In this document: positions 15,498-38,854 of the stretch, piece by piece | How positions within the stretch are numbered: the stretch's first letter is position 1 | Layout of the letters: each line of letters opens with the position of its first letter | Source of the DNA: Promethearchaeia archaeon | GTDB taxonomy: Archaea; Asgardarchaeota; Lokiarchaeia; Sigyniarchaeales; SOKP01 | Length of the DNA: 56,440 nt | Reading direction: 5' to 3' | NCBI GenBank assembly: GCA_029856145.1 | Contig: JAHQWK010000005.1 | Location: 1-56,440 of the forward strand | Notes under the pieces: model-generated | What the model was told of the DNA's origin: nothing | Database searches by the model: none | What the model saw: only the letters and a program-made list of their open reading frames with translations | Made by a program: the position numbers and the translations under genes

Positions 15498-16028
15498 TTA
15501 TAATAAATTAGACTTTTGTAGCATTAAACGTGATAAAGCTTCAAAAGTTTCTTCCACATTTTCACCTGTCTTCGAACTACATTCTATAAAACCATCTACG
15601 CTTCTAGATTTTGCAATATTAATACCTTCATCTCCTGTAACTTCACGATCATCAAGGAGATCTGCTTTTCCCCCTACGACAATAACAGGAAATTGATCTT
15701 CTGCTCGAAGTTCTCTTCTAATTACCATTAGCCAATCATCTATATGTGCAAGGGAACTATAATTTGTAACATCATACATAAATAGGGCTCCATTAGCACC
15801 ACGCACGTATGTTGGTAATAAAAATCGAAATCTTTCTTCTCCACCAAAATCCCAAATTTGCAGTTTTATCCTTTTTCCGTTGATTTCCAAACTTTTAACC
15901 TCGAAATCAACACCTATAGTCATTTTGGAATCTGATTTAAATAAATTAGTCAAGAATCTTTGGGTAAGGGTAGTTTTTCCGCACCCGGCATCTCCAAAAA
16001 TCACAATTTTATAAGTTGCATCATACAT
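15498..16028 (-). CDS. Rab-like small GTPase (non-canonical G3/G4)
   Basis: GDAGCGKT, TIGVDF, WDFGGEERF, GGKAD, CSSK. Confidence 0.95.
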   Translation of the reverse strand: MYDATYKIVIFGDAGCGKTTLTQRFLTNLFKSDSKMTIGVDFEVKSLEINGKRIKLQIWDFGGEERFRFLLPTYVRGANGALFMYDVTNYSSLAHIDDWLMVIRRELRAEDQFPVIVVGGKADLLDDREVTGDEGINIAKSRSVDGFIECSSKTGENVEETFEALSRLMLQKSNLL

Positions 16029-22173: not shown

Positions 22174-22635
22174 TTATAATATTCCTCTTAACTTTTGATC
22201 AATAGTTTGCGTATCGGTTCCAAAGATTGTATCAATAGATTGTTTGAAATCTTTAAATTGCGATACCTCAGATAAATTTTTACCTGTATTTAAAGATTTA
22301 AATTCTTTTAATACTTGTTTCAATAATGGTTGAATGACTTTATGAATGTATCTTTCTATTTTTTTCTCTTTATCTAATATAGCATAAGAGATTAGAAGTT
22401 CAGGCTCTATGCTATCTTCACTTGTTATTTTATCTTCAGTGAATGTAATAAGAAATTTTTTTCCTTCAAAATATTCTATAATATCCTCTGAAAAAGTAGA
22501 TTGAGCAAAATTTAAAAATGCGGTAAGAAGCCCACTTCTTAAGTCTGTATCAATTTTTCCTAATGATGTTTTGTGGTAACTTTTTTTTACTAAAGTAAAT
22601 CCTCTGAATAATACCCCAGCTTCTCTAACAACCAT
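22174..22635 (-). CDS. Longin-like domain protein
   Basis: DTDLRSGLLTAFLNFAQSTF longin helix; paralogue of 2017..2478. Confidence 0.7.
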   Translation of the reverse strand: MVVREAGVLFRGFTLVKKSYHKTSLGKIDTDLRSGLLTAFLNFAQSTFSEDIIEYFEGKKFLITFTEDKITSEDSIEPELLISYAILDKEKKIERYIHKVIQPLLKQVLKEFKSLNTGKNLSEVSQFKDFKQSIDTIFGTDTQTIDQKLRGIL

Positions 22636-25315: not shown

Positions 25316-25855
25316 ATGGGAAAAGATGACGTTACTAAAGGATTCGTATTTAAGATTACTGTAATAGGAGATGGAGCTGTAGGGAAGACTTCCTTAATTA
25401 AAAAATATACTCAAGGTAGCTTCCAAAAAGATTATATTAAGACCCTAGGCGCCCAATTCTCGAAATATGATGAAGAAATGGAGGGAGATAATTGTAAATT
25501 ATTCTTTTGGGATATTGCTGGACAACGGGAATTTGATTTCATGCGTCCCACATTTTACAAGGGTAGTAAAGCTGCAATCATAGTATTCTCCCATACTGAT
25601 GAAGATAGTTTTAATCATATAACAGATTGGCATGAAGATATTAAAAAATATACTGGGGATCTCCCAATTGTATTATTTGGTAATAAAACAGATTTAATTG
25701 ATGAAAAGGATTTAGATGACGAAATTATAATTGATATAGTTAAAGATAGCAATTTCCTTGGCTATTACAAGACATCTGCTAAAACAGGAAGCGGTGTTTA
25801 CGAAGCATTCCAAGCAATTATAAAAAAATTATATTACAAATACAAAGAAGAATAG
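25316..25855 (+). CDS. Rab-like small GTPase
   Basis: GDGAVGKT, TLG, WDIAGQ, GNKTD, TSAK. Confidence 0.95.
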   Translation: MGKDDVTKGFVFKITVIGDGAVGKTSLIKKYTQGSFQKDYIKTLGAQFSKYDEEMEGDNCKLFFWDIAGQREFDFMRPTFYKGSKAAIIVFSHTDEDSFNHITDWHEDIKKYTGDLPIVLFGNKTDLIDEKDLDDEIIIDIVKDSNFLGYYKTSAKTGSGVYEAFQAIIKKLYYKYKEE

Positions 25856-25858
25856 AAA

Positions 25859-26158
25859 ATGTATGAAGATATCAACCAAGGATATCCAAAGATTTTATTT
25901 TTTTCGTCAAATCATTGCGCACCTTGCATCCCAGTGGAAGAAAAGCTAAAGAGAATAAATATTTCACTATTCGGAAAAAAATTAAGAATTGAAAAAATCT
26001 CAATTGATTTGGAAGAAAATCGTCAGTTAACACAAGAGTATCGTATTTCATCAGTTCCCACATTAATTATAGCAGATAAGAGATTATCAGTAAATATACA
26101 AGAAGAAGAAATTATCGATGCGATACTTTATGCGTTTATATCTTCAGTCAAAATATAA
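25859..26158 (+). CDS. Thioredoxin-like protein (CAPC)
   Basis: FFSSNHCAPC and cis-Pro motif ISSVPTL; starts 3 nt after the GTPase stop. Confidence 0.85.
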   Translation: MYEDINQGYPKILFFSSNHCAPCIPVEEKLKRINISLFGKKLRIEKISIDLEENRQLTQEYRISSVPTLIIADKRLSVNIQEEEIIDAILYAFISSVKI

Positions 26159-26209
26159 ATTTACATAAATAAAAAAAATGTATAATAAAAATAAAAAAAG
26201 AAGTGAAAT

Positions 26210-26692
26210 TTGATGGATAGGCAATTACTCTCCAAAATTCTCGCTCAAATGAAAAAAAATTTAAGAGAGGGCAAAAACATCGGAGATATGAAAGTTGGTG
26301 CTTTATTAGCTTTAGGACACCAATTAGAAGCAATCTTTTACTATTTAGGCCATGAACTAGGAACAAACTTAAAAATTAAGCCCGTTAAGGAGATATCTCA
26401 AGTTCCAGATGAAATAAACCGAATTATTACTGAGTTTAATCTTGGAAAAGTTGAGATCACTGAAAGTACAGAAGAGATAGTACAGCTAAAATTAAAGGAC
26501 CATTCATCCATAAAAGATTTAATCAAAAAAGGAATTAGGACATCAGGAAGTTTTTGTTCATTTGAAGCAGGGTTATTAGCAGGAGTTGTAGAGAAATTAA
26601 GTGATCGTCATTGTTTTGCTCAAGAAATTGGATGTAGTTTACAAACCGGCGAGAATTATTGTACTTTCATGATTGTGTTTCAGAAAGATTAA
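26210..26692 (+). CDS. V4R domain protein (Bet3/TRAPP-related fold)
   Basis: FYYLGHELG, FNLGKV, FCSFEAGLLAGVVE, EIGC...GENYCTF. Confidence 0.88.
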   Translation: MMDRQLLSKILAQMKKNLREGKNIGDMKVGALLALGHQLEAIFYYLGHELGTNLKIKPVKEISQVPDEINRIITEFNLGKVEITESTEEIVQLKLKDHSSIKDLIKKGIRTSGSFCSFEAGLLAGVVEKLSDRHCFAQEIGCSLQTGENYCTFMIVFQKD

Positions 26693-26901
26693 TAAGATTA
26701 ATTAAATATTTTTTCTTATCCATTTTTTATATAAAGTATTAAACCACATGAAGTCCTATACATAATAATAATGTGGATGTAAAAATTTATTCAAGTTTGA
26801 TTCAATAAGAAATTAAATAATCAAAAATAAATTAAATAAAAATTATCAATATATTATCTCATAAAATTTAAATCAAAATTACTCAGAAAAGGTTTTTCAG
26901 A

Positions 26902-27429
26902 TTGGAACCTAGTTATATAATTAAGATTTGTTTGCTTGGGGAAGCAAATGTGGGGAAGACATCACTTGTATATAGATTTATTGAGAATAAATTTAGAGAA
27001 AATTATAAATCCACACTTGGTGTAAACCTTTTAAAGAAGGATATGAGTATTGCAGATTATGGTAGTGCTTCTGCTCAGATTTGGGATCTAGGGGGCCAAG
27101 AATCCTTTAAATCTCTTAGAAAGTTATATTTAGAGGGAGCTAATGGCGCATTGTTGGTTTATGATATGACTAGCAAGAAAAGCTTTGAAAAACTTGGTGA
27201 ATGGATACAAAGTTTTAGAGATGCTAGGGATGATGCTCCTATAATGTTAATAGGAAACAAATCTGATTTAAAAAAGCAAATTAAAATAACTGAAAATAAA
27301 TCCTCGGAATATGCTAAAGCAAATGATATGTCTTTAACTATAACTTCAGCTAAAACTGGTCGAAATGTTGAAGAGGCTTTTATACAATTAACTAAACGTA
27401 TTTTAGATCAGATCTCAGAAGATTCTTAA
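26902..27429 (+). CDS. Rab-like small GTPase
   Basis: GEANVGKT, STLGV, WDLGGQESF, GNKSD, TSAK. Confidence 0.95.
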   Translation: MEPSYIIKICLLGEANVGKTSLVYRFIENKFRENYKSTLGVNLLKKDMSIADYGSASAQIWDLGGQESFKSLRKLYLEGANGALLVYDMTSKKSFEKLGEWIQSFRDARDDAPIMLIGNKSDLKKQIKITENKSSEYAKANDMSLTITSAKTGRNVEEAFIQLTKRILDQISEDS

Positions 27430-28810: not shown

Positions 28811-29089
28811 CTAGAATTCATAATCAAACCCTTTGAATTCATTTGTAGGAGGAGTAAATTCATGTTCTATTTTCTCGACTTGAGCATGCTTAGGACCTTG
28901 TTTAGAGAACTTTAATAATTCAAATAATTTATCCTGAGGTCCTTCAGCTTCAATATAGACGGTGCCATCAGACATATTTTTAACGTATCCAGTTAAACCT
29001 AATTTTCGAGCAACCTTCCTAGTAGTATAGCGAAAAAAAACACCTTGCACGTATCCGAATACTTTAATTTTTATCTTAGATACTTTCAT
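28811..29089 (-). CDS. acyP: Acylphosphatase
   Basis: VFGYVQGVFFR, GYVKN..DGTV, GP..AQV. Confidence 0.95.
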   Translation of the reverse strand: MKVSKIKIKVFGYVQGVFFRYTTRKVARKLGLTGYVKNMSDGTVYIEAEGPQDKLFELLKFSKQGPKHAQVEKIEHEFTPPTNEFKGFDYEF

Positions 29090-29742
29090 ACTCTCAAATA
29101 ATAAGAATCTTTCTCAGAGTCATATCCTACAACATTATTTTTTACAAGCGTTTCAAGGACACTTAATAACCATTGTTTTTTTGTCATTATCACCTTTTTA
29201 AAATCTTCAAGCTTTACTAGATCTTTAATTGCTAGCAAGAATAAGATTTTACTTTTTACAGGTAAATGATTTGTTTTTGTAATGAAATCGAATTTTACTT
29301 CATAATCATATTCTCTTGTTTTTAGAAAGGCAACCTCATTACTTAATTTTGTTATTACTTCATCAGTAGTACGGAAAGCATCCAAACTGATATGAAACAT
29401 CGCCTCTAGAGTTTCTTTTAATTTCTCTTCTTCTGTTAATTTATCAATCTCTTGATTAAATTTTTCGAGAATTTCTAAATAGTCATTACCATCATCAAAT
29501 TTGCTTAACACTAAAACAATTATGATTTCTTTTTTTTCATTATAATAAGAAACTGAGTTCCATTTTTTTTCTTCTGTAATAATGTAAGATTCAGTAAAGT
29601 TATGTGATATCGTTATTTGTTGTACCACTGGATTTGGAATTTCTAAGTCTTCAGGGAATTTTAAATAAATAATACCTCCCTCAACCTCATCCCAACGAAT
29701 TAAAAAGATACCATTTGGCATTGTATCTATTTCAGCGTCCAA
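29086..29742 (-). CDS. uDENN/longin-like N-terminal domain plus C-terminal winged helix
   Basis: IFLIRWDEVEGG.IYLKFP start (uDENN-like), coiled segment, then LETLVKNNVVGYD..KDSYYL wHTH. Confidence 0.55.
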   Translation of the reverse strand: MDAEIDTMPNGIFLIRWDEVEGGIIYLKFPEDLEIPNPVVQQITISHNFTESYIITEEKKWNSVSYYNEKKEIIIVLVLSKFDDGNDYLEILEKFNQEIDKLTEEEKLKETLEAMFHISLDAFRTTDEVITKLSNEVAFLKTREYDYEVKFDFITKTNHLPVKSKILFLLAIKDLVKLEDFKKVIMTKKQWLLSVLETLVKNNVVGYDSEKDSYYLRV

Positions 29743-29926: not shown

Positions 29927-30202
29927 ATGGCAGTATTTTATGTATATATTTTAGAAGTTATGGCTAAGAATGGAAAAAAAAGATATTACACTGGTTACAC
30001 CAATAATCTCTATAGGAGATGGAAGGAACATCGAAATGGAACTGGTGCTAAATTTTGTCGTGGTAAGAAACTTATTGAGTTAAAATATTTCGAAACTCAT
30101 CAAACTAGAAAGGAAGCTATGAGAAGAGAATTGCAAATCAAGTCCTTTTCAAGACAGCAAAAAGGAGAACTTATAAAGAGCATTAGTTTTAATACAAATT
30201 AG
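29927..30202 (+). CDS. GIY-YIG nuclease superfamily protein (UPF0213-like)
   Basis: FYVYIL...YYTGYTNNL.RR..EH..G.GAKF...EAMRRE..IK. Confidence 0.92.
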   Translation: MAVFYVYILEVMAKNGKKRYYTGYTNNLYRRWKEHRNGTGAKFCRGKKLIELKYFETHQTRKEAMRRELQIKSFSRQQKGELIKSISFNTN

Positions 30203-30214
30203 TTGATTTAATTT

Positions 30215-31012
30215 TTGAATAACAAAAATTTTTTGATCTGTTTAGTAGGATTGCCTGCATCGGGTAAGAGTACATTTGCTAATTCGTTAAAAATTGCCCT
30301 TAAAAAAAAATTTAATAATTTGGAAGTTAAGATTATTGATCCTGACATAATTAGACAAAAAATAACCTCAGATAAATTTGATCACGAAAAAGAACACATT
30401 GTCAGAAATGAGAATTTAAAAATTATTAGGAGTGAGTTAGAACTAGGGAATACTGTAATTAGTGATGATTTAAACTACTATTCAAGTATGAGACATGATT
30501 TAAAAGGAATTGCAGATGAACTTAATCTAGATTTTTCTATCGTTCATATTGCAACCCCTATTGAAATTTGTATGAAGTGGAATGAAAAAAGAGGTGAACC
30601 TATTCCTATAGAGGTTATCAGTAAAATTCAGGATAAATTTGATATGTTTAATAAATATAATTGGGATAATCCTATTGCCACGTATGATCTCTCAGAGATA
30701 TCTGACCTAAACATAGTAATGAAGGAATTTTTGGCTAAATTAGAAGATAAGATGAATTTTAGAAAACAAAAATTTGGAAAAGAAAGGACTAAGATTATTT
30801 CTAACATATATAATGAAAATTTAGACAAAATTACTAGAGTTTATGTAGGAAAACTTGTATTAAATCCTAGTTTTATCCCTCTTAAAAACAAGATTTTTAA
30901 ATTAAGAAAAACCTATATAAAAAAAAATAAAAATAAAGCGCTAAGCGAGACAGAAATCTTAAAAAGGTTTAAAATTTATTTAGAAAAAATTCTAAATATA
31001 AAAATTTCTTGA
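30215..31012 (+). CDS. pstK: O-phosphoseryl-tRNA(Sec) kinase (PSTK/KTI12 family)
   Basis: LVGLPASGKSTFA, D.IR, VISDDLNYYSSMR, N.KR...IP.EVI, Y.WD.P, and a helical C-terminal domain. Confidence 0.82.
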   Translation: MNNKNFLICLVGLPASGKSTFANSLKIALKKKFNNLEVKIIDPDIIRQKITSDKFDHEKEHIVRNENLKIIRSELELGNTVISDDLNYYSSMRHDLKGIADELNLDFSIVHIATPIEICMKWNEKRGEPIPIEVISKIQDKFDMFNKYNWDNPIATYDLSEISDLNIVMKEFLAKLEDKMNFRKQKFGKERTKIISNIYNENLDKITRVYVGKLVLNPSFIPLKNKIFKLRKTYIKKNKNKALSETEILKRFKIYLEKILNIKIS

Positions 31013-31122
31013 ATGTTTTTTTGACAGACAATTATAAAAATTAAAGAAAAAGAAAATAAACTACTATTACTTTTTTTACATGATAATTTTCAAAAATTTG
31101 ATTAGTTTCGTTATGAGGAAAA

Positions 31123-33402
31123 ATGTCGCAAGGAAAAATTGTGAAGAAGAACTCTAAACTCAGAATTGAGAGGTTAGATAAAAGTCGAAGTGGACGTTCT
31201 CTTTGTTATATAGATCAAGATATAATGTTTGAATTAGGATTAAACACAGGAGATATTATTGAGATTAGAGGAAAGAAAAAAACTACTGGTATTGCTGTTT
31301 CTTCAGGTTCAGATAGAGGAAAGGGGATTATTAGACTTGATGGACTCCAAAGATTAAATGCAGGAGCAACAATAGGAGAATATGTTACATTACAACTCGC
31401 AGATGTTCATCCCGCAATTGAAATTATATTAACTCCTACCCGTCCTAATATTGATTTAAAGAGGCAAGCAGAAGCGATTAAAGGAAAGTTAATTGATAAA
31501 CCGGTAGTGTTAGGCGATATCGTTGATGTCTTGGGAACTTTTGTTCAAAGAGATGAGAGTGACAACCCAATGTCTGAAATTATGAAAATGTTTCCTTTTG
31601 GAGCTAAAAAAAGGCCAACATTGGGAACGTTAAGGTTAATTGTGGAGAATTTAAAACCTTCAGATAAAGTAGTTAAAATAACTCGTGATACTCTAATAAA
31701 AGTTAATAAAAGAGTAGCGGTTCTTAATATCTCTGGGGGTGTTGTTACTTACGATGATGTCGGAGGATTGACAGATGAAATTCAAAGAATTAGAGAGATG
31801 GTTGAATTACCTTTAAAACACCCTGAATTATTCCATCGTTTGAATATAGATCCACCTAAGGGTGTACTATTTCATGGACCTTCTGGAACAGGTAAAACGC
31901 TTATGGCAAAAGCTGTTTCACAAGAATCTAATGCTAATTTTATAATTATAAATGGTCCTGAAATAATGAGTAAGTTTTATGGAGCAAGTGAGGGGAGACT
32001 TCGAGATATATTTAGAGAAGCAGAAGAAAATGCGCCCTCTATAATTTTTATAGATGAAATCGATTCTATTGCTCCAAAACGGGTTGATACTTCAGGAGAA
32101 GTAGAAAGGCGAGTTGTTTCTCAATTGTTATCTTTAATGGATGGTCTACGTGGTAGAGGGGAAATAATTTGTGTTGGTGCTACTAACAGAATTAATGCAA
32201 TTGATGAAGCTTTAAGAAGACCGGGAAGATTTGATCGTGAGATTGAGTTTGGTGTTCCAAATGTTAAGGGAAGAAAAGAAGTATTTCAAATACATACAAG
32301 GGGAATGCCAATAGAAAAAGACGTCAAACTAGATGACTATGCTGATATAACTCATGGGTTTGTTGGAGCTGATATTATGGCGGTATGTCGGGAAGCTGCG
32401 ATGTATTCACTTAGAAGAATTTTACCAAAGATCAATTTAGATGAACCAATCCCTAGTGAAATTATTCAAGAAATTAAGATTAAAAATAATGATTTTATTC
32501 AAGCTCTAAATATGATTGAACCTTCTGCAATGCGAGAAGTTATGGTCGAAATTCCTGATACCTCTTGGGATGAAGTTGGAGGCTTAGAGGATATAAAAAA
32601 TGAGTTAAAAGAAGCAGTAGAATGGCCATTGAAATATCCTAAATTATTCGAAAGAGCAGGGATTCGCCCATTAAACGGAATACTCCTTTTTGGGCCCCCC
32701 GGATGTGGAAAAACCCTTTTAGCTAAAGCTATTGCCACTGAAACAAAGACTAATTTCATAACAGTAAAAGGGCCCGAATTATTTTCTAAATGGGTTGGCG
32801 AAAGTGAGAAATCAGTAAGAAATATTTTTAGAAAAGCTAGACAATCGGCACCTTCAATAGTCTATTTCGATGAAATTGATGCTGTTTCCGCTTCTAGGGG
32901 AATTAGCGAGGGAACCGCCCTTAGAGACTCAATTGTAAATCAAATATTAGTAGAAATGGATGGAATTGAAAATCGAAAAGGTATTGTTGTTATTGCGAGT
33001 ACAAATCGACCTGATATGGTAGATTCAGCATTATTAAGACCTGGAAGACTAGATCGATTATTATATGTTAGAGCCCCTAACCTTGAAGAAAGAGAAGATA
33101 TATTAAAAGTTCACACTAAAAACATGCCCTTAGCAGATGATATTTCTTTAAAACATACCGCACAAACAACAGAAGGATATAGTGGTGCCGATTTAGAAAA
33201 TGTATGTCGTGAAGCAGGAATGCAGGCAATTAGAGAAAAATTAAATGATTTAGAAAAAATAGAACAAAAACACTTTGATTTTGCATTGTCTAAAATTAAT
33301 TCGACATTACCAAACGAAATTATTGAAAAATATGAAAGTATGGCTAAAGAAATAACTAAATCAAGGAATATTCAGGAATCCAAAGCTGATTTATATAGAT
33401 AA
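31123..33402 (+). CDS. cdc48: Cdc48/p97 (VCP/VAT) AAA+ ATPase
   Basis: N-domain plus two AAA modules ([14 protein letters not shown]; [13 protein letters not shown]), [11 protein letters not shown], and a C-terminal HbYX motif (LYR). Confidence 0.96.
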
Positions 33403-34767: not shown

Positions 34768-35919
34768 TTATAAATTTTGAACGAATTTCTCAATTCTATC
34801 CATAGCTTCTTCAAGCTTTTCTAATTCAGTAGCATATGAGATTCTTATCATATTTTCTGAAAATGACCCAAAAATGTTTCCAGGAACGATAGCTACCGCT
34901 TGTTCTTTCATAATTCTCTGTGAAAATTGAGAACCGCTCAAATTGAATTTTTCTGTTGAGGGCATTATATAAAATGCTCCACTTGGTTTTACTACATTAA
35001 AACCCATCCTGTTTAATCGATTATGCACTAAATTACGTCTTTTATCAAAAGTCTCCCATATTTCCTTAAAAAAATTCGCGTCCATTTTTAGTGCTTCAAT
35101 AAAACCATACTGAGCAGCATGATTAGTTCCTGCAATAGTATATTGATGAAATTTCTCCATTAAATCTATTATTTCTTTTGAAGCAATAGCATACCCTAAT
35201 CTAAAACCAGTAGCAGAATATGACTTTGACATAGCATTTACTGTTATAGTTCTTTCAAACATACCATTTAAAGAAGCTGGACTTACATGTTTTAGTCCAT
35301 CATAAATATAATTTTCATAGACTTCATCTGTAATTAAATACAAATCATTTTCTATAATAATATCGACAATTTCTTCCAAATCTTTTTGAGTTAAAGCATA
35401 ACCAGTAGGATTATTAGGAGTATTGATCAACATTGCCTTAGTTTTATTTGTAATCGAATTCCTTATTTTTTCAATATTAGGGCTAAAATCTTTATTTCGC
35501 TCAACCTCTATCACTTTAACACCAAAAAATGAAGCACAGTAAAAGTAAGAGACGAAATTTGGTGAGGAAATGATCAACTCATCTCCAGGATTAAAAATTG
35601 AAGCAAATGCTAAAGTAACTGCTTGACTGGCTCCGTTAGTAACAATTATATTATCTCTCCATTTTATATTAATCTGATTAATATTAACCGCTTTCTTCTC
35701 TATTAATTCTAATAACTCAGGAACACCCCTAGTGGGGGCATACATAGTAATATTCTTTTTTAATGCGTTTATATTTCCTTGTATTACAGGTTCGGGAGTT
35801 CTAAAATCTGGCTGTCCAATCCCAAGACTAATAACACCCGAACGACCAGAGGCAAGATCAAATAACTCTCTTATAGCAGATTTTGGAGCTTTCAATAATC
35901 TTTGAGATGTTTCTTTCAT
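34768..35919 (-). CDS. PLP-dependent aminotransferase class I/II (aspartate aminotransferase-like)
   Basis: GQPDF, NTPNNPTG, DEVYE, SKSYSATGFRLGY, GAFY, RISYA. Confidence 0.95.
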   Translation of the reverse strand: MKETSQRLLKAPKSAIRELFDLASGRSGVISLGIGQPDFRTPEPVIQGNINALKKNITMYAPTRGVPELLELIEKKAVNINQINIKWRDNIIVTNGASQAVTLAFASIFNPGDELIISSPNFVSYFYCASFFGVKVIEVERNKDFSPNIEKIRNSITNKTKAMLINTPNNPTGYALTQKDLEEIVDIIIENDLYLITDEVYENYIYDGLKHVSPASLNGMFERTITVNAMSKSYSATGFRLGYAIASKEIIDLMEKFHQYTIAGTNHAAQYGFIEALKMDANFFKEIWETFDKRRNLVHNRLNRMGFNVVKPSGAFYIMPSTEKFNLSGSQFSQRIMKEQAVAIVPGNIFGSFSENMIRISYATELEKLEEAMDRIEKFVQNL

Positions 35920-36006: not shown

Positions 36007-36561
36007 TTAAATCTCTACACCATGGTTGTTCAAGATTTGATTTACTAGAAGTATAAAAGCTTCTTCAATATTTTCTCCCAGTTTTGCACTTGTTTCAATA
36101 AAGTGGCTAGCTTTGATTTTTTGGGCTATTTTTTTACCTCTCTCTTGTGTTACTGTCCTTTGGTCTGTTAAATCTGATTTATTGCCAATTAATATATATG
36201 CTCCCTCTTTCTTAACATATTTTTTGAAATCTCGTAACCATTTGGAATTTATGCTATCAAAAGTGCTATAGCGAGTAACATCATAAACCAGTAAAGCACC
36301 TTGACATCCCTGAAAATACATACTGCGAACAACTCGGTACTTTTCTTGACCTGCTAGATCCCACATTATAAGTCGAACTTTTGTGCTATTCAAGTTTACA
36401 TCTTTACGAACAATGTTTGCTCCTAGCGTAGGTTTGTAGTCCTCGTTAAATGAGCCTTCTACAAATTGATTTATCAAAGATGTCTTACCTACAGCAGCAT
36501 CTCCTAAAATAACTACTTTGTATACGAATTCTCGATCGAGATTAGCATCTTCGATTATCAT
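36007..36561 (-). CDS. Rab-like small GTPase
   Basis: GDAAVGKT, PTLG, WDLAGQEKY, GNKSD, ETSAK. Confidence 0.95.
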   Translation of the reverse strand: MIIEDANLDREFVYKVVILGDAAVGKTSLINQFVEGSFNEDYKPTLGANIVRKDVNLNSTKVRLIMWDLAGQEKYRVVRSMYFQGCQGALLVYDVTRYSTFDSINSKWLRDFKKYVKKEGAYILIGNKSDLTDQRTVTQERGKKIAQKIKASHFIETSAKLGENIEEAFILLVNQILNNHGVEI

Positions 36562-36688
36562 TGTGCAATTTAATATTTTGTTGTAGGTCTATTTAATACT
36601 TTTTTCATTTTTTTATAAAAAATTATATTAATGTCTAAATGGATTTCTTATATTACTTCAATTATATAACTTAATTTTCGTTTTTAAC

Positions 36689-37255
36689 TTATTTAATACT
36701 TTTGTCAATTTTTAATTTAACTATGAAACTATTATGTTGGGGATCTTTTATGTCATCTATATCTCTCTCATAAATAACTTTATGTTCTGATGGTAAGGAT
36801 TTTTGTAATGAATTAACTAAAAATCCTTTAAACAAATCACAAGGAACTCCAATCTCAGAACAAAAGATACATCGATCGACACTTATAAACATTTCATTTT
36901 CGTTATTTTCTCTAATACTAACCTTCCAATCTGCTATAATTGAAGAATTTATTTCATCAATAATTTCTTCAAAACTTTTTCCAAATGGAAATAAATAAAA
37001 TGAGAATTTCTTACCAATTTCAAAAAGGAGATCAGAGGAATCATATAATAAACAATTTTGAGCAGATATGATTTTTTTAAAAGAAAAAAAGTCTAATGTA
37101 TCATTAGGGTTTTTATCTCTTATATCCTTTATGTGTATCATTCCTGCTTCTTTTAAGATAGATTTCATCCCATCATAATCAAGGATATCGTGATAGGCTT
37201 GAAGAAGCGCCACAATAACTTTATTTTTTACAAACCCTTTATAATCTCCAATCAT
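36689..37255 (-). CDS. V4R/H-NOX-fold-like protein
   Basis: DIL..DGMKSILKEAG, FEIGKKF, DRCIFCSE...PCDLFKGFL match the V4R Cys pattern. Confidence 0.7.
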   Translation of the reverse strand: MIGDYKGFVKNKVIVALLQAYHDILDYDGMKSILKEAGMIHIKDIRDKNPNDTLDFFSFKKIISAQNCLLYDSSDLLFEIGKKFSFYLFPFGKSFEEIIDEINSSIIADWKVSIRENNENEMFISVDRCIFCSEIGVPCDLFKGFLVNSLQKSLPSEHKVIYERDIDDIKDPQHNSFIVKLKIDKSIK

Positions 37256-37294
37256 TTCTGTCTAATTCGATACCTTACTTTTTATAATAATTTA

Positions 37295-37855
37295 TTAATT
37301 TCTTTCGAATTTAACTCCACTTTTCTTTAATATATACAAAACTAATTTTTTAAACGCTTCCTCAACGTTTTCCCCATATTTTGCACTTGTTTCTATAAAC
37401 TCTGCAGCATCAATCTTTTGAGATAATGATTTTCCTTCTTCGGATGATACTTTAATTGAATCTTTTAAATCTAATTTGTTACCTATTAATATATAAACTC
37501 CATCAGGCCTGCTAAATTTTTTAAAATCCTCAAGCCATTTTATTGTTATCTGTTCAAATGTTGAATAACGTGTTATATCATAAACTAGAAGTGCTCCGAC
37601 ACAACCCTGAAAAAAATTTTGACGTGTTAATTCATATTTATCCTGACCGGCTATATCCCATAAGAGCAAACGAATTTTGGAGTTTATTTCGTCAATTCTT
37701 ATATCCTTTGATACTATGTTTACACCTAGAGTTGGCGTGTAACTTTCTTTAAAGGAATTAGTAATATATTTATCAATTAAGGATGTTTTCCCTACTGCAG
37801 GATCTCCTAATATTGCCAACTTTAATGCCCATTCTCTATTCTTATTATATACCAT
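37295..37855 (-). CDS. Rab-like small GTPase
   Basis: GDPAVGKT, PTLG, WDIAGQDKY, GNKLD, ETSAK. Confidence 0.95.
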   Translation of the reverse strand: MVYNKNREWALKLAILGDPAVGKTSLIDKYITNSFKESYTPTLGVNIVSKDIRIDEINSKIRLLLWDIAGQDKYELTRQNFFQGCVGALLVYDITRYSTFEQITIKWLEDFKKFSRPDGVYILIGNKLDLKDSIKVSSEEGKSLSQKIDAAEFIETSAKYGENVEEAFKKLVLYILKKSGVKFERN

Positions 37856-37872
37856 TAAATCTCAACCCATTT

Positions 37873-38307
37873 TCATAAATCTAAAAGCGATAAATTAAAT
37901 TGAGGATCCTCAGCGCGACTTAATTCTTGATCAATTTCCAATATTTTAACTTCACCTGTAACGGATATTATGCTTGGTTGGCTTAGATGTCCTCCTATTA
38001 CAGAATAATCACTTCTTCCTAAAGTTACATGTAAGTGAATTATTGGCTCTTTACCTTTATATGTTATATTTCCTATGCAACTAATTAATTCTACGTATTC
38101 ATTAAAAGTTTCCATTTTGTAATTTTTGGAATCAATATCATAAAAACCGATTGTAAATTTTTTTAATGCACCAATACAGTTGATTAATCCAGATTTGATA
38201 TTATATTGTTTAACTAAGTCAATGATTGAGTTTATTAAATCTTCATTAGGTTCAACTTTCCCGAAAATAATGCGTTTAGATCTAGTTTCGATACTTTTCA
38301 TTTTCAT
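37873..38307 (-). CDS. PPC (DUF296) domain protein
   Basis: IGAL, ELISCIGNI, HLHVTLG, GGHL, TGEV. Confidence 0.92.
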   Translation of the reverse strand: MKMKSIETRSKRIIFGKVEPNEDLINSIIDLVKQYNIKSGLINCIGALKKFTIGFYDIDSKNYKMETFNEYVELISCIGNITYKGKEPIIHLHVTLGRSDYSVIGGHLSQPSIISVTGEVKILEIDQELSRAEDPQFNLSLLDL

Positions 38308-38317
38308 TTAAATTTTA

Positions 38318-38854
38318 TTAAACTTTAATTCCTTCATTCCTTAATATTTGAAAGACTAATTTTTCAAAAGCTTTTTCTACATTTTCTCCGTATTTCGCAC
38401 TCGTTTCAACAAGGTCACTTGCGTCTATTTTATCTGCAAGTGCTCTTCCCTCCTCATTGGATACTGTTCTAGAATCTTGTAAGTCAATTTTATTTCCTAT
38501 TAAAACATAAGCTAAATCTTTTTCTCCATATTCATTTAGATCTTCTAACCATTTAGATTCAATATTTTTAAATGTAGCATGTCTGGTTATATCATATATA
38601 AATAATGCCCCTACTACACCTTGAAAAAACATTTTTCGCGAAAGATCATATTTTTCTTGACCAGAAATATCCCAAATAACTAACCGGATTTGATTATGTT
38701 CTGTTTCTAATTCTTTCACACAGATTGAAACGCCTAATGTGGGCTTGTAATCTTCTTTAAATTGGTGATGAGCATACATATTGATCAGAGAGGTTTTACC
38801 AACCGCGCTATCTCCTAATAAAACAAGCTTCAGAACAATGATGTTGTCAGACAT
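38318..38854 (-). CDS. Rab-like small GTPase
   Basis: GDSAVGKT, PTLG, WDISGQEKY, GNKID, ETSAK. Confidence 0.95.
   Translation of the reverse strand: MSDNIIVLKLVLLGDSAVGKTSLINMYAHHQFKEDYKPTLGVSICVKELETEHNQIRLVIWDISGQEKYDLSRKMFFQGVVGALFIYDITRHATFKNIESKWLEDLNEYGEKDLAYVLIGNKIDLQDSRTVSNEEGRALADKIDASDLVETSAKYGENVEKAFEKLVFQILRNEGIKV

Follow-up and report, generated by a model that had tools for sequence, protein, structure and literature searches.

Stand-alone H-NOX proteins of bacteria regulate a histidine kinase or a c-di-GMP enzyme; their signalling works through glycine hinges, around which two subdomains move, and a Cys–zinc site makes it possible where haem is lacking (PMC8738867, PMC7108781). 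The TRAPP core, which is composed of Bet3/Trs31/Trs33 and longin subunits, is an exchange factor for Rab1/Rab11, and a TRAPPC3 is described from Thorarchaeota (PMC10933270, PMC10152722). Rab effectors read the switch I/interswitch/switch II face of the GTPase with its hydrophobic triad (PMC8458453). The V4R domain has been tied to Bet3 with no link to a GTPase (Podar et al. 2008, PMC2253512) and is not mentioned by Wuichet and Sogaard-Andersen (PMC4316618). Loki-type archaea encode dozens of Rab-like GTPases. Tran et al. 2024 (PMC10933270) described V4R proteins in Loki, for which ligand binding was suggested, and wrote that operons joining a GTPase gene to a roadblock, longin or TRAPPC3 gene are generally not seen in MK-D1, such that partners are hard to predict from the genome. 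Here, a 56,440-nt stretch of a Promethearchaeia archaeon (contig JAHQWK010000005.1, assembly GCA_029856145.1; hereafter the window, to which unprefixed coordinates refer) is analysed, in which a V4R-like gene, termed V, lies directly upstream of a Rab-like small GTPase gene, G3, within an array that holds two further GTPase genes, G1 and G2. No V4R protein that binds a GTPase is described in the papers found, nor is the V–G3 pair in the literature searched, which is incomplete.

The V–G3 pair across Lokiarchaeia

The initial annotation read the minus strand here as GTPase–PPC–GTPase–V4R–GTPase with gaps of 10–127 nt. This order (G1, PPC, G2, V, G3) holds, with gaps of 10, 17, 39 and 127 nt (G1–PPC, PPC–G2, G2–V and V–G3, respectively). 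The lasting unit is V followed by G3, not the five-gene array. The main features are:

36689..37255, minus strand: V, a 188-aa protein of H-NOX/V4R fold without the haem histidine; predicted partner of G3 and core of the putative module
36007..36561, minus strand: G3, a 184-aa Rab-like small GTPase (Pfam Ras, 1e-53); the ancient copy downstream of V and the other half of the core
37148..37186, minus strand: codons of V residues 24–36 (helix A–B turn and helix B; invariant D28, G29 and S32, and E36, which covaries); first half of the surface predicted to contact the GTPase
37019..37054, minus strand: codons of V residues 68–79 (invariant L69, near-invariant L70, E79); second half of the surface predicted to contact the GTPase
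36406..36429, minus strand: codons of G3 residues 45–52 (the last part of switch I, then strand beta-2), with I50 at the predicted interface centre and R52 covarying with V position 36
36590..36604, minus strand: BRE/TATA-like box in the V–G3 gap, ending 28 nt before the G3 start; a putative promoter element

V is present in 134 of 161 Lokiarchaeia genomes, in all seven families sampled and nearly always as a single copy; this count leaves out three weak matches, which extend over no more than the C-terminal half of another protein. In a set of 112 distinct V genes, which excludes two divergent second copies in Helarchaeota-type genomes, a GTPase gene lies directly downstream on the same strand in 106, one gene intervenes in three and the contig ends in three; apart from those contig ends, none of the 112 lacks a downstream GTPase. 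A co-oriented GTPase directly downstream is thus found for 106 of 109 assessable V genes, as against 1.5% of the genes of this genome; these loci are kin rather than independent cases, but they represent at least eight different genomic surroundings. In distant families V is 23–35% identical and all other neighbours differ (ribosomal proteins, leucyl-tRNA synthetase, an epimerase and others), and the V–GTPase gap is −4 to 42 nt in most distant lineages. The functional V4R–GTPase pairing proposed in the initial annotation therefore has stronger support than that reading could offer, whereas the layout it emphasized, a V4R gene between GTPases, is not conserved here or at the second V4R locus in the window: 65 of the 112 V loci have no GTPase within 1.5 kb upstream.

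Homologues of the array genes are labelled Promethearchaeota/Lokiarchaeia and Helarchaeota. A phylum-wide search, in which 11 candidates were scored per genome, gave no V at E 1e-8 outside Lokiarchaeia, which is not proof of absence, and a profile of distant V members searched against sequences for bacterial relatives returned only Lokiarchaeia-type proteins. A 65%-identical V gene occurs in an assembly titled Nanopelagicaceae bacterium (L261, DATKTW010000179.1), which is probably a mislabelled Lokiarchaeia assembly. In three Helarchaeota-type loci (L034:7385-8341, L040:7200-8156 and L082:1399-2337), a GTPase of about 315 aa with an extra N-terminal domain, roadblock/longin-like by eye, adjoins V–G3 either downstream or divergently.

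Searches of Pfam and NCBIfam with V alone gave no match. In its AlphaFold (AF2) model (pLDDT 91), V adopts the H-NOX/V4R fold on which the initial annotation had made its reading depend, with an N-terminal helical and a C-terminal alpha/beta subdomain as in H-NOX. It matches H-NOX structures with Z 10.1–10.7 (rmsd 4.0 at Z 10.7; 165 residues aligned, span 9–188), the V4R protein MJ1460 with Z 8.0, PoxR/DmpR with Z 7.9–8.2, and eukaryotic TRAPP subunits with Z 6.8–7.7 over V residues 52–188 only. The V family profile matches MJ1460 (E 4e-4), and Pfam V4R (PF02830) is matched by six of 41 aligned V orthologues (best E 4e-17), the Helarchaeota-type members among those that pass and the V of this genome unmatched. 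The nearest Atlas shapes are full-length Chloroflexota 4VR proteins (TM 0.74 over 181 residues); the link to Chloroflexota V4R–MglA operons comes only from Atlas shape and feature matches. Invariant residues lie mostly in the N-terminal half (A16, L17, D28, G29, S32, A37, L69, G81, K83, P90 and G92, plus G144), and the last eight residues are net basic or neutral in 102 of 104 sequences. The candidate counterpart in V of the Cys-ligated zinc site of V4R domains, C129, C132, C139 and H174, is invariant among close relatives; class-wide these positions are 25–80% kept, and the site is absent in one family, a variability that argues against a single conserved ligand. The haem-propionate motif of H-NOX proteins is YxSxR. 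Haem-binding H-NOX identity was rejected for V, given that no column in V 88–112 has His above 10% weight as a proximal haem ligand, and that YxSxR occurs anywhere in only seven of 104 V sequences and is absent from the V studied here.

G1, G2 and G3 belong to the Ras superfamily, with P-loop, switch I Thr, DxxGQ, NKxD and SAK intact and Pfam Ras matches above cut-off at E 1e-47 to 1e-53. The strings FFQG/YFQG and ETSAK, from which local duplication had been proposed, recur in all three alongside intact G1–G5 motifs, and the proposal is upheld: the three are 54.5–58.1% identical to each other and at most 43% identical to other GTPases of the genome, which has 66 GTPase-domain genes, and the tree groups all three. 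The RabF1 motif of eukaryotic Rabs is IGVDF with the triad Phe. At this place the V-linked GTPases all carry LG[AVTS][NS][IL], and a Cys in the last five residues, as for C-terminal prenylation, was found in none of 104 G3 orthologues, nor in G1 or G2; true eukaryotic Rab identity was rejected on both counts. The catalytic Q72 is invariant in G3. All five genes of the array are under purifying selection, with median dN/dS against relatives of 0.07 for G3, 0.12 for G2, 0.13 for V, 0.15 for G1 and 0.17 for PPC.

Predicted contact between V and G3

The V–G3 complex was modelled in three runs with a 41-row alignment per protein and no nucleotide. It scored 0.64 (runs 0.64, 0.60 and 0.72) against 0.16 for the best control, the score mark being one that 58 of 80 solved complexes and two of 110 mismatched pairs reach. 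The runs share at least 93% of contacts, with partner pLDDT of at least 83. The predicted interface comprises V residues 24–29, 31–33, 36, 68–76 and 79 and G3 residues 13, 15, 45–52, 63–70 and 75–85, with I50 of G3, the first hydrophobic-triad position, at its centre. V is thereby predicted to pack two helices of its N-terminal subdomain onto the switch I/interswitch/switch II face of G3, with its C-terminus outside the interface; neither a conserved Arg on the V interface nor a predicted P-loop contact was found. The interface takes in D28, G29, S32 and L69, which had been noted as invariant before the model was run, and V is more conserved there than elsewhere (0.60 vs 0.46, permutation p 0.008).

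Two interface positions covary. In this family, all 93 pairs combine Glu at V36 with Arg at G3-52, and all 11 pairs from elsewhere have Phe or Tyr with Ile, Ala or Leu; V36/G3-52 ranks third of 28,044 column pairs by mutual information.

On this evidence we favour, by a modest degree, the reading that V binds the switch face of G3 directly, as an effector-type partner and most likely in the GTP state. V would contact G3 through switch I, the interswitch strands and switch II; as this face is nucleotide-dependent and read by effectors, we infer that V would prefer the GTP form. The effector-type reading draws on the lack of a conserved interface Arg, the basic tail and the lack of a predicted P-loop contact. 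The two proteins would then form a cognate signalling module dating to the common ancestor of Lokiarchaeia. In a further step, the two-subdomain body of V, with its glycine hinge, hydrophobic cleft and, in most lineages, Cys site, might couple G3 binding to a small ligand, a metal or a thiol state, in either direction. That V–G3 is a direct sensor-to-switch module, in which a haem-less H-NOX/V4R protein holds its own Rab-like GTPase by the switch face depending on ligand or redox state, is put forward more tentatively, as a possibility.

Duplicated GTPases, losses and a second V4R locus

The remaining features at the array and the locus compared with it are:

37295..37855, minus strand: G2, a 186-aa duplicate of G3 (58% to G3), intact here, limited to the family, without R52
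38318..38854, minus strand: G1, a 178-aa duplicate (55% to G3), intact here, the one most often lost in relatives, without R52
37873..38307, minus strand: PPC/DUF296 (PF03479) gene, a neighbour only in most genera of the family to which this genome belongs, and outside the ancient pair
34768..35919, minus strand: class I/II aminotransferase downstream of G3, a family-level neighbour that is not kept in other families
25316..27429, plus strand: comparison locus, with a GTPase (25316–25855), a thioredoxin fold (25859–26158), a classical V4R (26210–26692) and a GTPase (26902–27429)

In IQ-TREE trees of 126–143 GTPases, the V-downstream GTPases form one group with G1, G2 and their kin. Support for this G3-type group is 90/41 overall and 100/95 within the order, so that the group is not firm at its base. 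All 51 other GTPases of this genome that were tested fall outside it, as do 30 best matches from V-less genomes. G1 and G2 arose within this family and have longer branches than G3. An Arg at the position equivalent to G3-52 is kept in only one of 52 upstream duplicates, which points to G3 as the cognate copy; G2 keeps N49–I50. G1 and G2 are read as later, dispensable duplicates that have kept their enzyme motifs while the V-facing surface drifted. The possibility that they are pseudogenes in this genome was rejected. Broken copies of G2 are seen in relatives (L046:7897-8373 and L066:2112-2546), of which one has no P-loop and one is split in two frames. An independent GTPase–V–GTPase duplication is present in one genome of another family (L033:5800-7643), where both GTPases are sisters in the tree. 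The PPC gene (109.6 bits to PF03479, PPC/DUF296, against a cut-off of 25) is not beside V in the g20 loci seen, nor in any other family; it and the aminotransferase are passengers. An origin of the five-gene array as an ancient unit was rejected, the upstream duplicates occurring in only part of one family, with frequent losses.

Two kinds of loss were seen. V was not found in five genomes of family f2, three of them complete, and the best GTPase matches in these genomes fall outside the G3 group, so the pair seems to have been lost together. Nor was V found in genus g19 (L181-L189), in which the order PPC–GTPase–GTPase is retained, with both GTPases of the G3 type and V no longer between the two. 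The g19 GTPases have changed V13, I50 and K53, altering the beta-2 strand, at positions that are 93–100% kept in V-linked G3; these changes come from one lineage and are only suggestive.

The V4R at 26210 was described in the initial annotation as quite different from V. This is confirmed by the lack of a significant BLAST match between them, with only a C-terminal profile match. Structurally, V4R 26210 belongs with the classical V4R/Bet3-type domains (Z 14.5 to MJ1460 and 11 to TRAPP) and shares only its C-terminal half with V. The two are different structural subtypes: V has the complete H-NOX-type fold, and the predicted GTPase contact lies on its N-terminal subdomain. The GTPases of the comparison locus belong to clades unrelated to the G1–G3 group, and the unit kept there across the order is GTPase 25316, the thioredoxin and V4R 26210, GTPase 26902 having moved or being missing in other families. 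Both loci tie a V4R-fold gene to a GTPase, but with a different layout and surface, and the same mechanism at both was rejected. The trio at 25316–26692 is also kept in complete f2 genomes without V–G3; in L143 the order is GTPase–V4R–thioredoxin.

A third V4R–GTPase pair (G000:C11:114104-115852; L291, L292-L318) consists of an Arf-like fusion GTPase of 332 aa and, downstream of it, a Pfam V4R gene of 195 aa. It is kept in nearly all loci seen of f1, the family studied here, several of which have a further Rab-like GTPase after it, and not in the one f2 genome matched. At G000:C25:64334-67614, a small V4R-like gene of the ATC-hydrolase family lies two genes upstream of three tandem Rab-like GTPases. 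In an in-genome permutation test, three of 11 V4R-fold genes were observed next to GTPases against 0.42 expected (p 0.008). Two of those three cases had prompted the test and the list of V4R-fold genes is incomplete, so the permutation is not counted as support; without the two prompting loci, one of nine is adjacent.

Elsewhere in the window, a sixth Rab-like GTPase (15498–16028) belongs to an unrelated clade. A GIY-YIG nuclease-like gene (by eye), a KTI12-family kinase and CDC48 (29927–33402) stay adjacent in distant families of the order. The genes at 22174–22635 and 29086–29742 have no Pfam match and longin-like N-termini by eye, and in f2 genomes the second of these has kept its place close to the orthologue of V4R 26210.

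Alternative explanations and comparison with known systems

Several points weigh against direct effector-type binding of G3 by V. The complex score is a model's confidence, and the controls were unrelated proteins, not other GTPases; as close cousins of true partners also pass, the score says nothing on specificity for G3. Many solved Rab–effector structures may bias the predicted pose, and no solved complex of a V4R/H-NOX fold with a GTPase in this mode was found. The agreement between interface and invariant residues is not independent, because the model was given alignments that already contain this conservation. G29 may owe its conservation to the fold alone, and D-G-x-x-S is kept in two divergent V paralogues that have no GTPase neighbour (L043:771-1352 and L044:6208-6750, both Helarchaeota-type, with His in place of E79). 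The V36/G3-52 covariation, as read from the aligned pairs, amounts to a single evolutionary event, and the full V–G3 mutual-information scan gave no interface enrichment, for there were too few independent sequences (effective depth 10–30). G3-type GTPases persist in g19, so that G3 can survive without V. The Cys site, judged from the alignments, is not conserved across the class and the ligand of V is only postulated. Finally, G3 seems to have its own promoter in this lineage: a TATA-like box is present in 33 of 82 long V–G3 gaps, in 26 of them at exactly 28 nt, against 4.5 expected from shuffles, so that the box at 36590–36604 is the probable promoter of G3, which may also be transcribed alone. 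A scan with sigma-70 promoter and terminator models, which are unsuited to archaea, stayed at chance level.

V could instead act on nucleotide exchange by G3, as a one-subunit TRAPP-like exchange factor or as a dissociation inhibitor. It shares the fold of TRAPP Bet3/Trs31 (Z 6.8–7.7), the TRAPP core, too, reaches the central sheet of Ypt1 along with its two switches (PMC10152722), the model places the invariant D28 of V at the point where switch I ends, and the complex was modelled without nucleotide. The TRAPP site, however, is made mainly by the longin subunits, and the pocket is opened by the C-terminus of Bet3 (PMC10152722), whereas no free longin gene accompanies the pair, the tail of V is basic, the P-loop lies outside the predicted interface, and half of the V interface (24–36) is outside the part aligned to eukaryotic TRAPP subunits (52–188); exchange activity is therefore considered unlikely. 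Less likely again is a GAP-like activity, the least probable of the readings weighed here, by which V would stimulate hydrolysis by ordering switch II as MglB does for the neighbouring MglA. The two-gene layout resembles mglB–mglA (PMC4316618), switch II is within the predicted interface and G3 keeps its catalytic Q72, but V has no conserved Arg at the interface and is not of roadblock fold, and the contact is predicted away from the nucleotide.

V and G3 may also be neighbours only because they are co-regulated or because rearrangement is slow, the proteins never touching. Synteny is not unusual, as 15 of 60 co-oriented neighbour pairs taken from distant loci recur side by side in this genome; G3 survives the loss of V, and two of 110 mismatched pairs pass the complex test. 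Those 15 pairs are, however, largely known functional ones (ribosomal proteins, transporter subunits), V–G3 outlasts every other neighbour, V orthologues were never seen away from G3, and the complex model and the covariation point to contact, which leaves this explanation slightly less likely than an exchange role. It is improbable, a little more so than shared regulation, that the whole five-gene array is the functional unit, with V serving three GTPases and PPC as a further component. The gaps from G1 to V are tight (10–39 nt), G1, G2 and PPC are under purifying selection (dN/dS 0.12–0.17), G2 retains the N49–I50 pair, and a GTPase–V–GTPase arrangement arose separately in another family. 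Against this, G1, G2 or PPC is missing beside V in many genomes, some copies are broken, all but one of the 52 upstream duplicates lack R52, and PPC–GTPase–GTPase persists after V loss.

A small partner gene next to its switch is already known in kind. The new elements are an interface predicted with controls, a covarying residue pair, two kinds of loss and the finding that the two loci differ structurally. V–G3 is a class-wide exception to the rule seen in MK-D1, and offers two small soluble proteins with a predicted interface and named residues, with G1/G2, the V-less genus g19 and the second V4R locus as built-in negative controls. If V does bind G3, the V4R/H-NOX/Bet3 fold was linked to Rab-like GTPases before eukaryotes. 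If V–G3 is, in addition, a sensor-to-switch module, it would be of a kind not described and V one of the first partners of an Asgard Rab-like GTPase to be defined as cognate, and the fold that became TRAPP Bet3 would already have touched Rab-like GTPases in archaea, by another surface and without longins.

Each of the known systems resembles the pair in part. With MglA–MglB operons (PMC4316618) it shares a small prokaryotic GTPase that adjoins a small regulator gene, but G3 is Rab-like with a catalytic Gln and V is not a roadblock protein. V belongs to the same fold superfamily as the TRAPP core subunits (Z about 7) and is in predicted contact with a Rab-like GTPase; in contrast to TRAPP, no free longin gene is conserved at the V–G3 locus in the loci compared, the contact is predicted through N-terminal helices and does not place the C-terminus in the nucleotide pocket as Bet3 does, and the arrangement is a one-to-one gene pair. 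As in Rab–effector complexes (PMC8458453), the helices of V are predicted to cover switch I, the interswitch and switch II around the first triad position, although in G3 Ile (I50) stands in place of the triad Phe and a prenylation Cys is missing, and V is a sensor fold rather than a coiled coil. The V4R/4-vinyl reductase proteins (PF02830; MJ1460, the PoxR/DmpR sensor domains, MsvR and Chloroflexota 4VR) are linked to V by the MJ1460 profile match, the Helarchaeota-type Pfam V4R members and the Atlas shape, whilst the V of this genome has no Pfam match and lacks the canonical C-terminal Cys pair. Like the stand-alone bacterial H-NOX proteins (PMC8738867, PMC7108781), V has the full two-subdomain fold in a small protein that would act on a partner in trans, with invariant glycines G81 and G144 at the likely hinge and, in many members, a Cys site in the C-terminal half; it differs from them in having no conserved haem His or YxSxR, and in that its predicted partner is a small GTPase rather than a kinase or cyclase.

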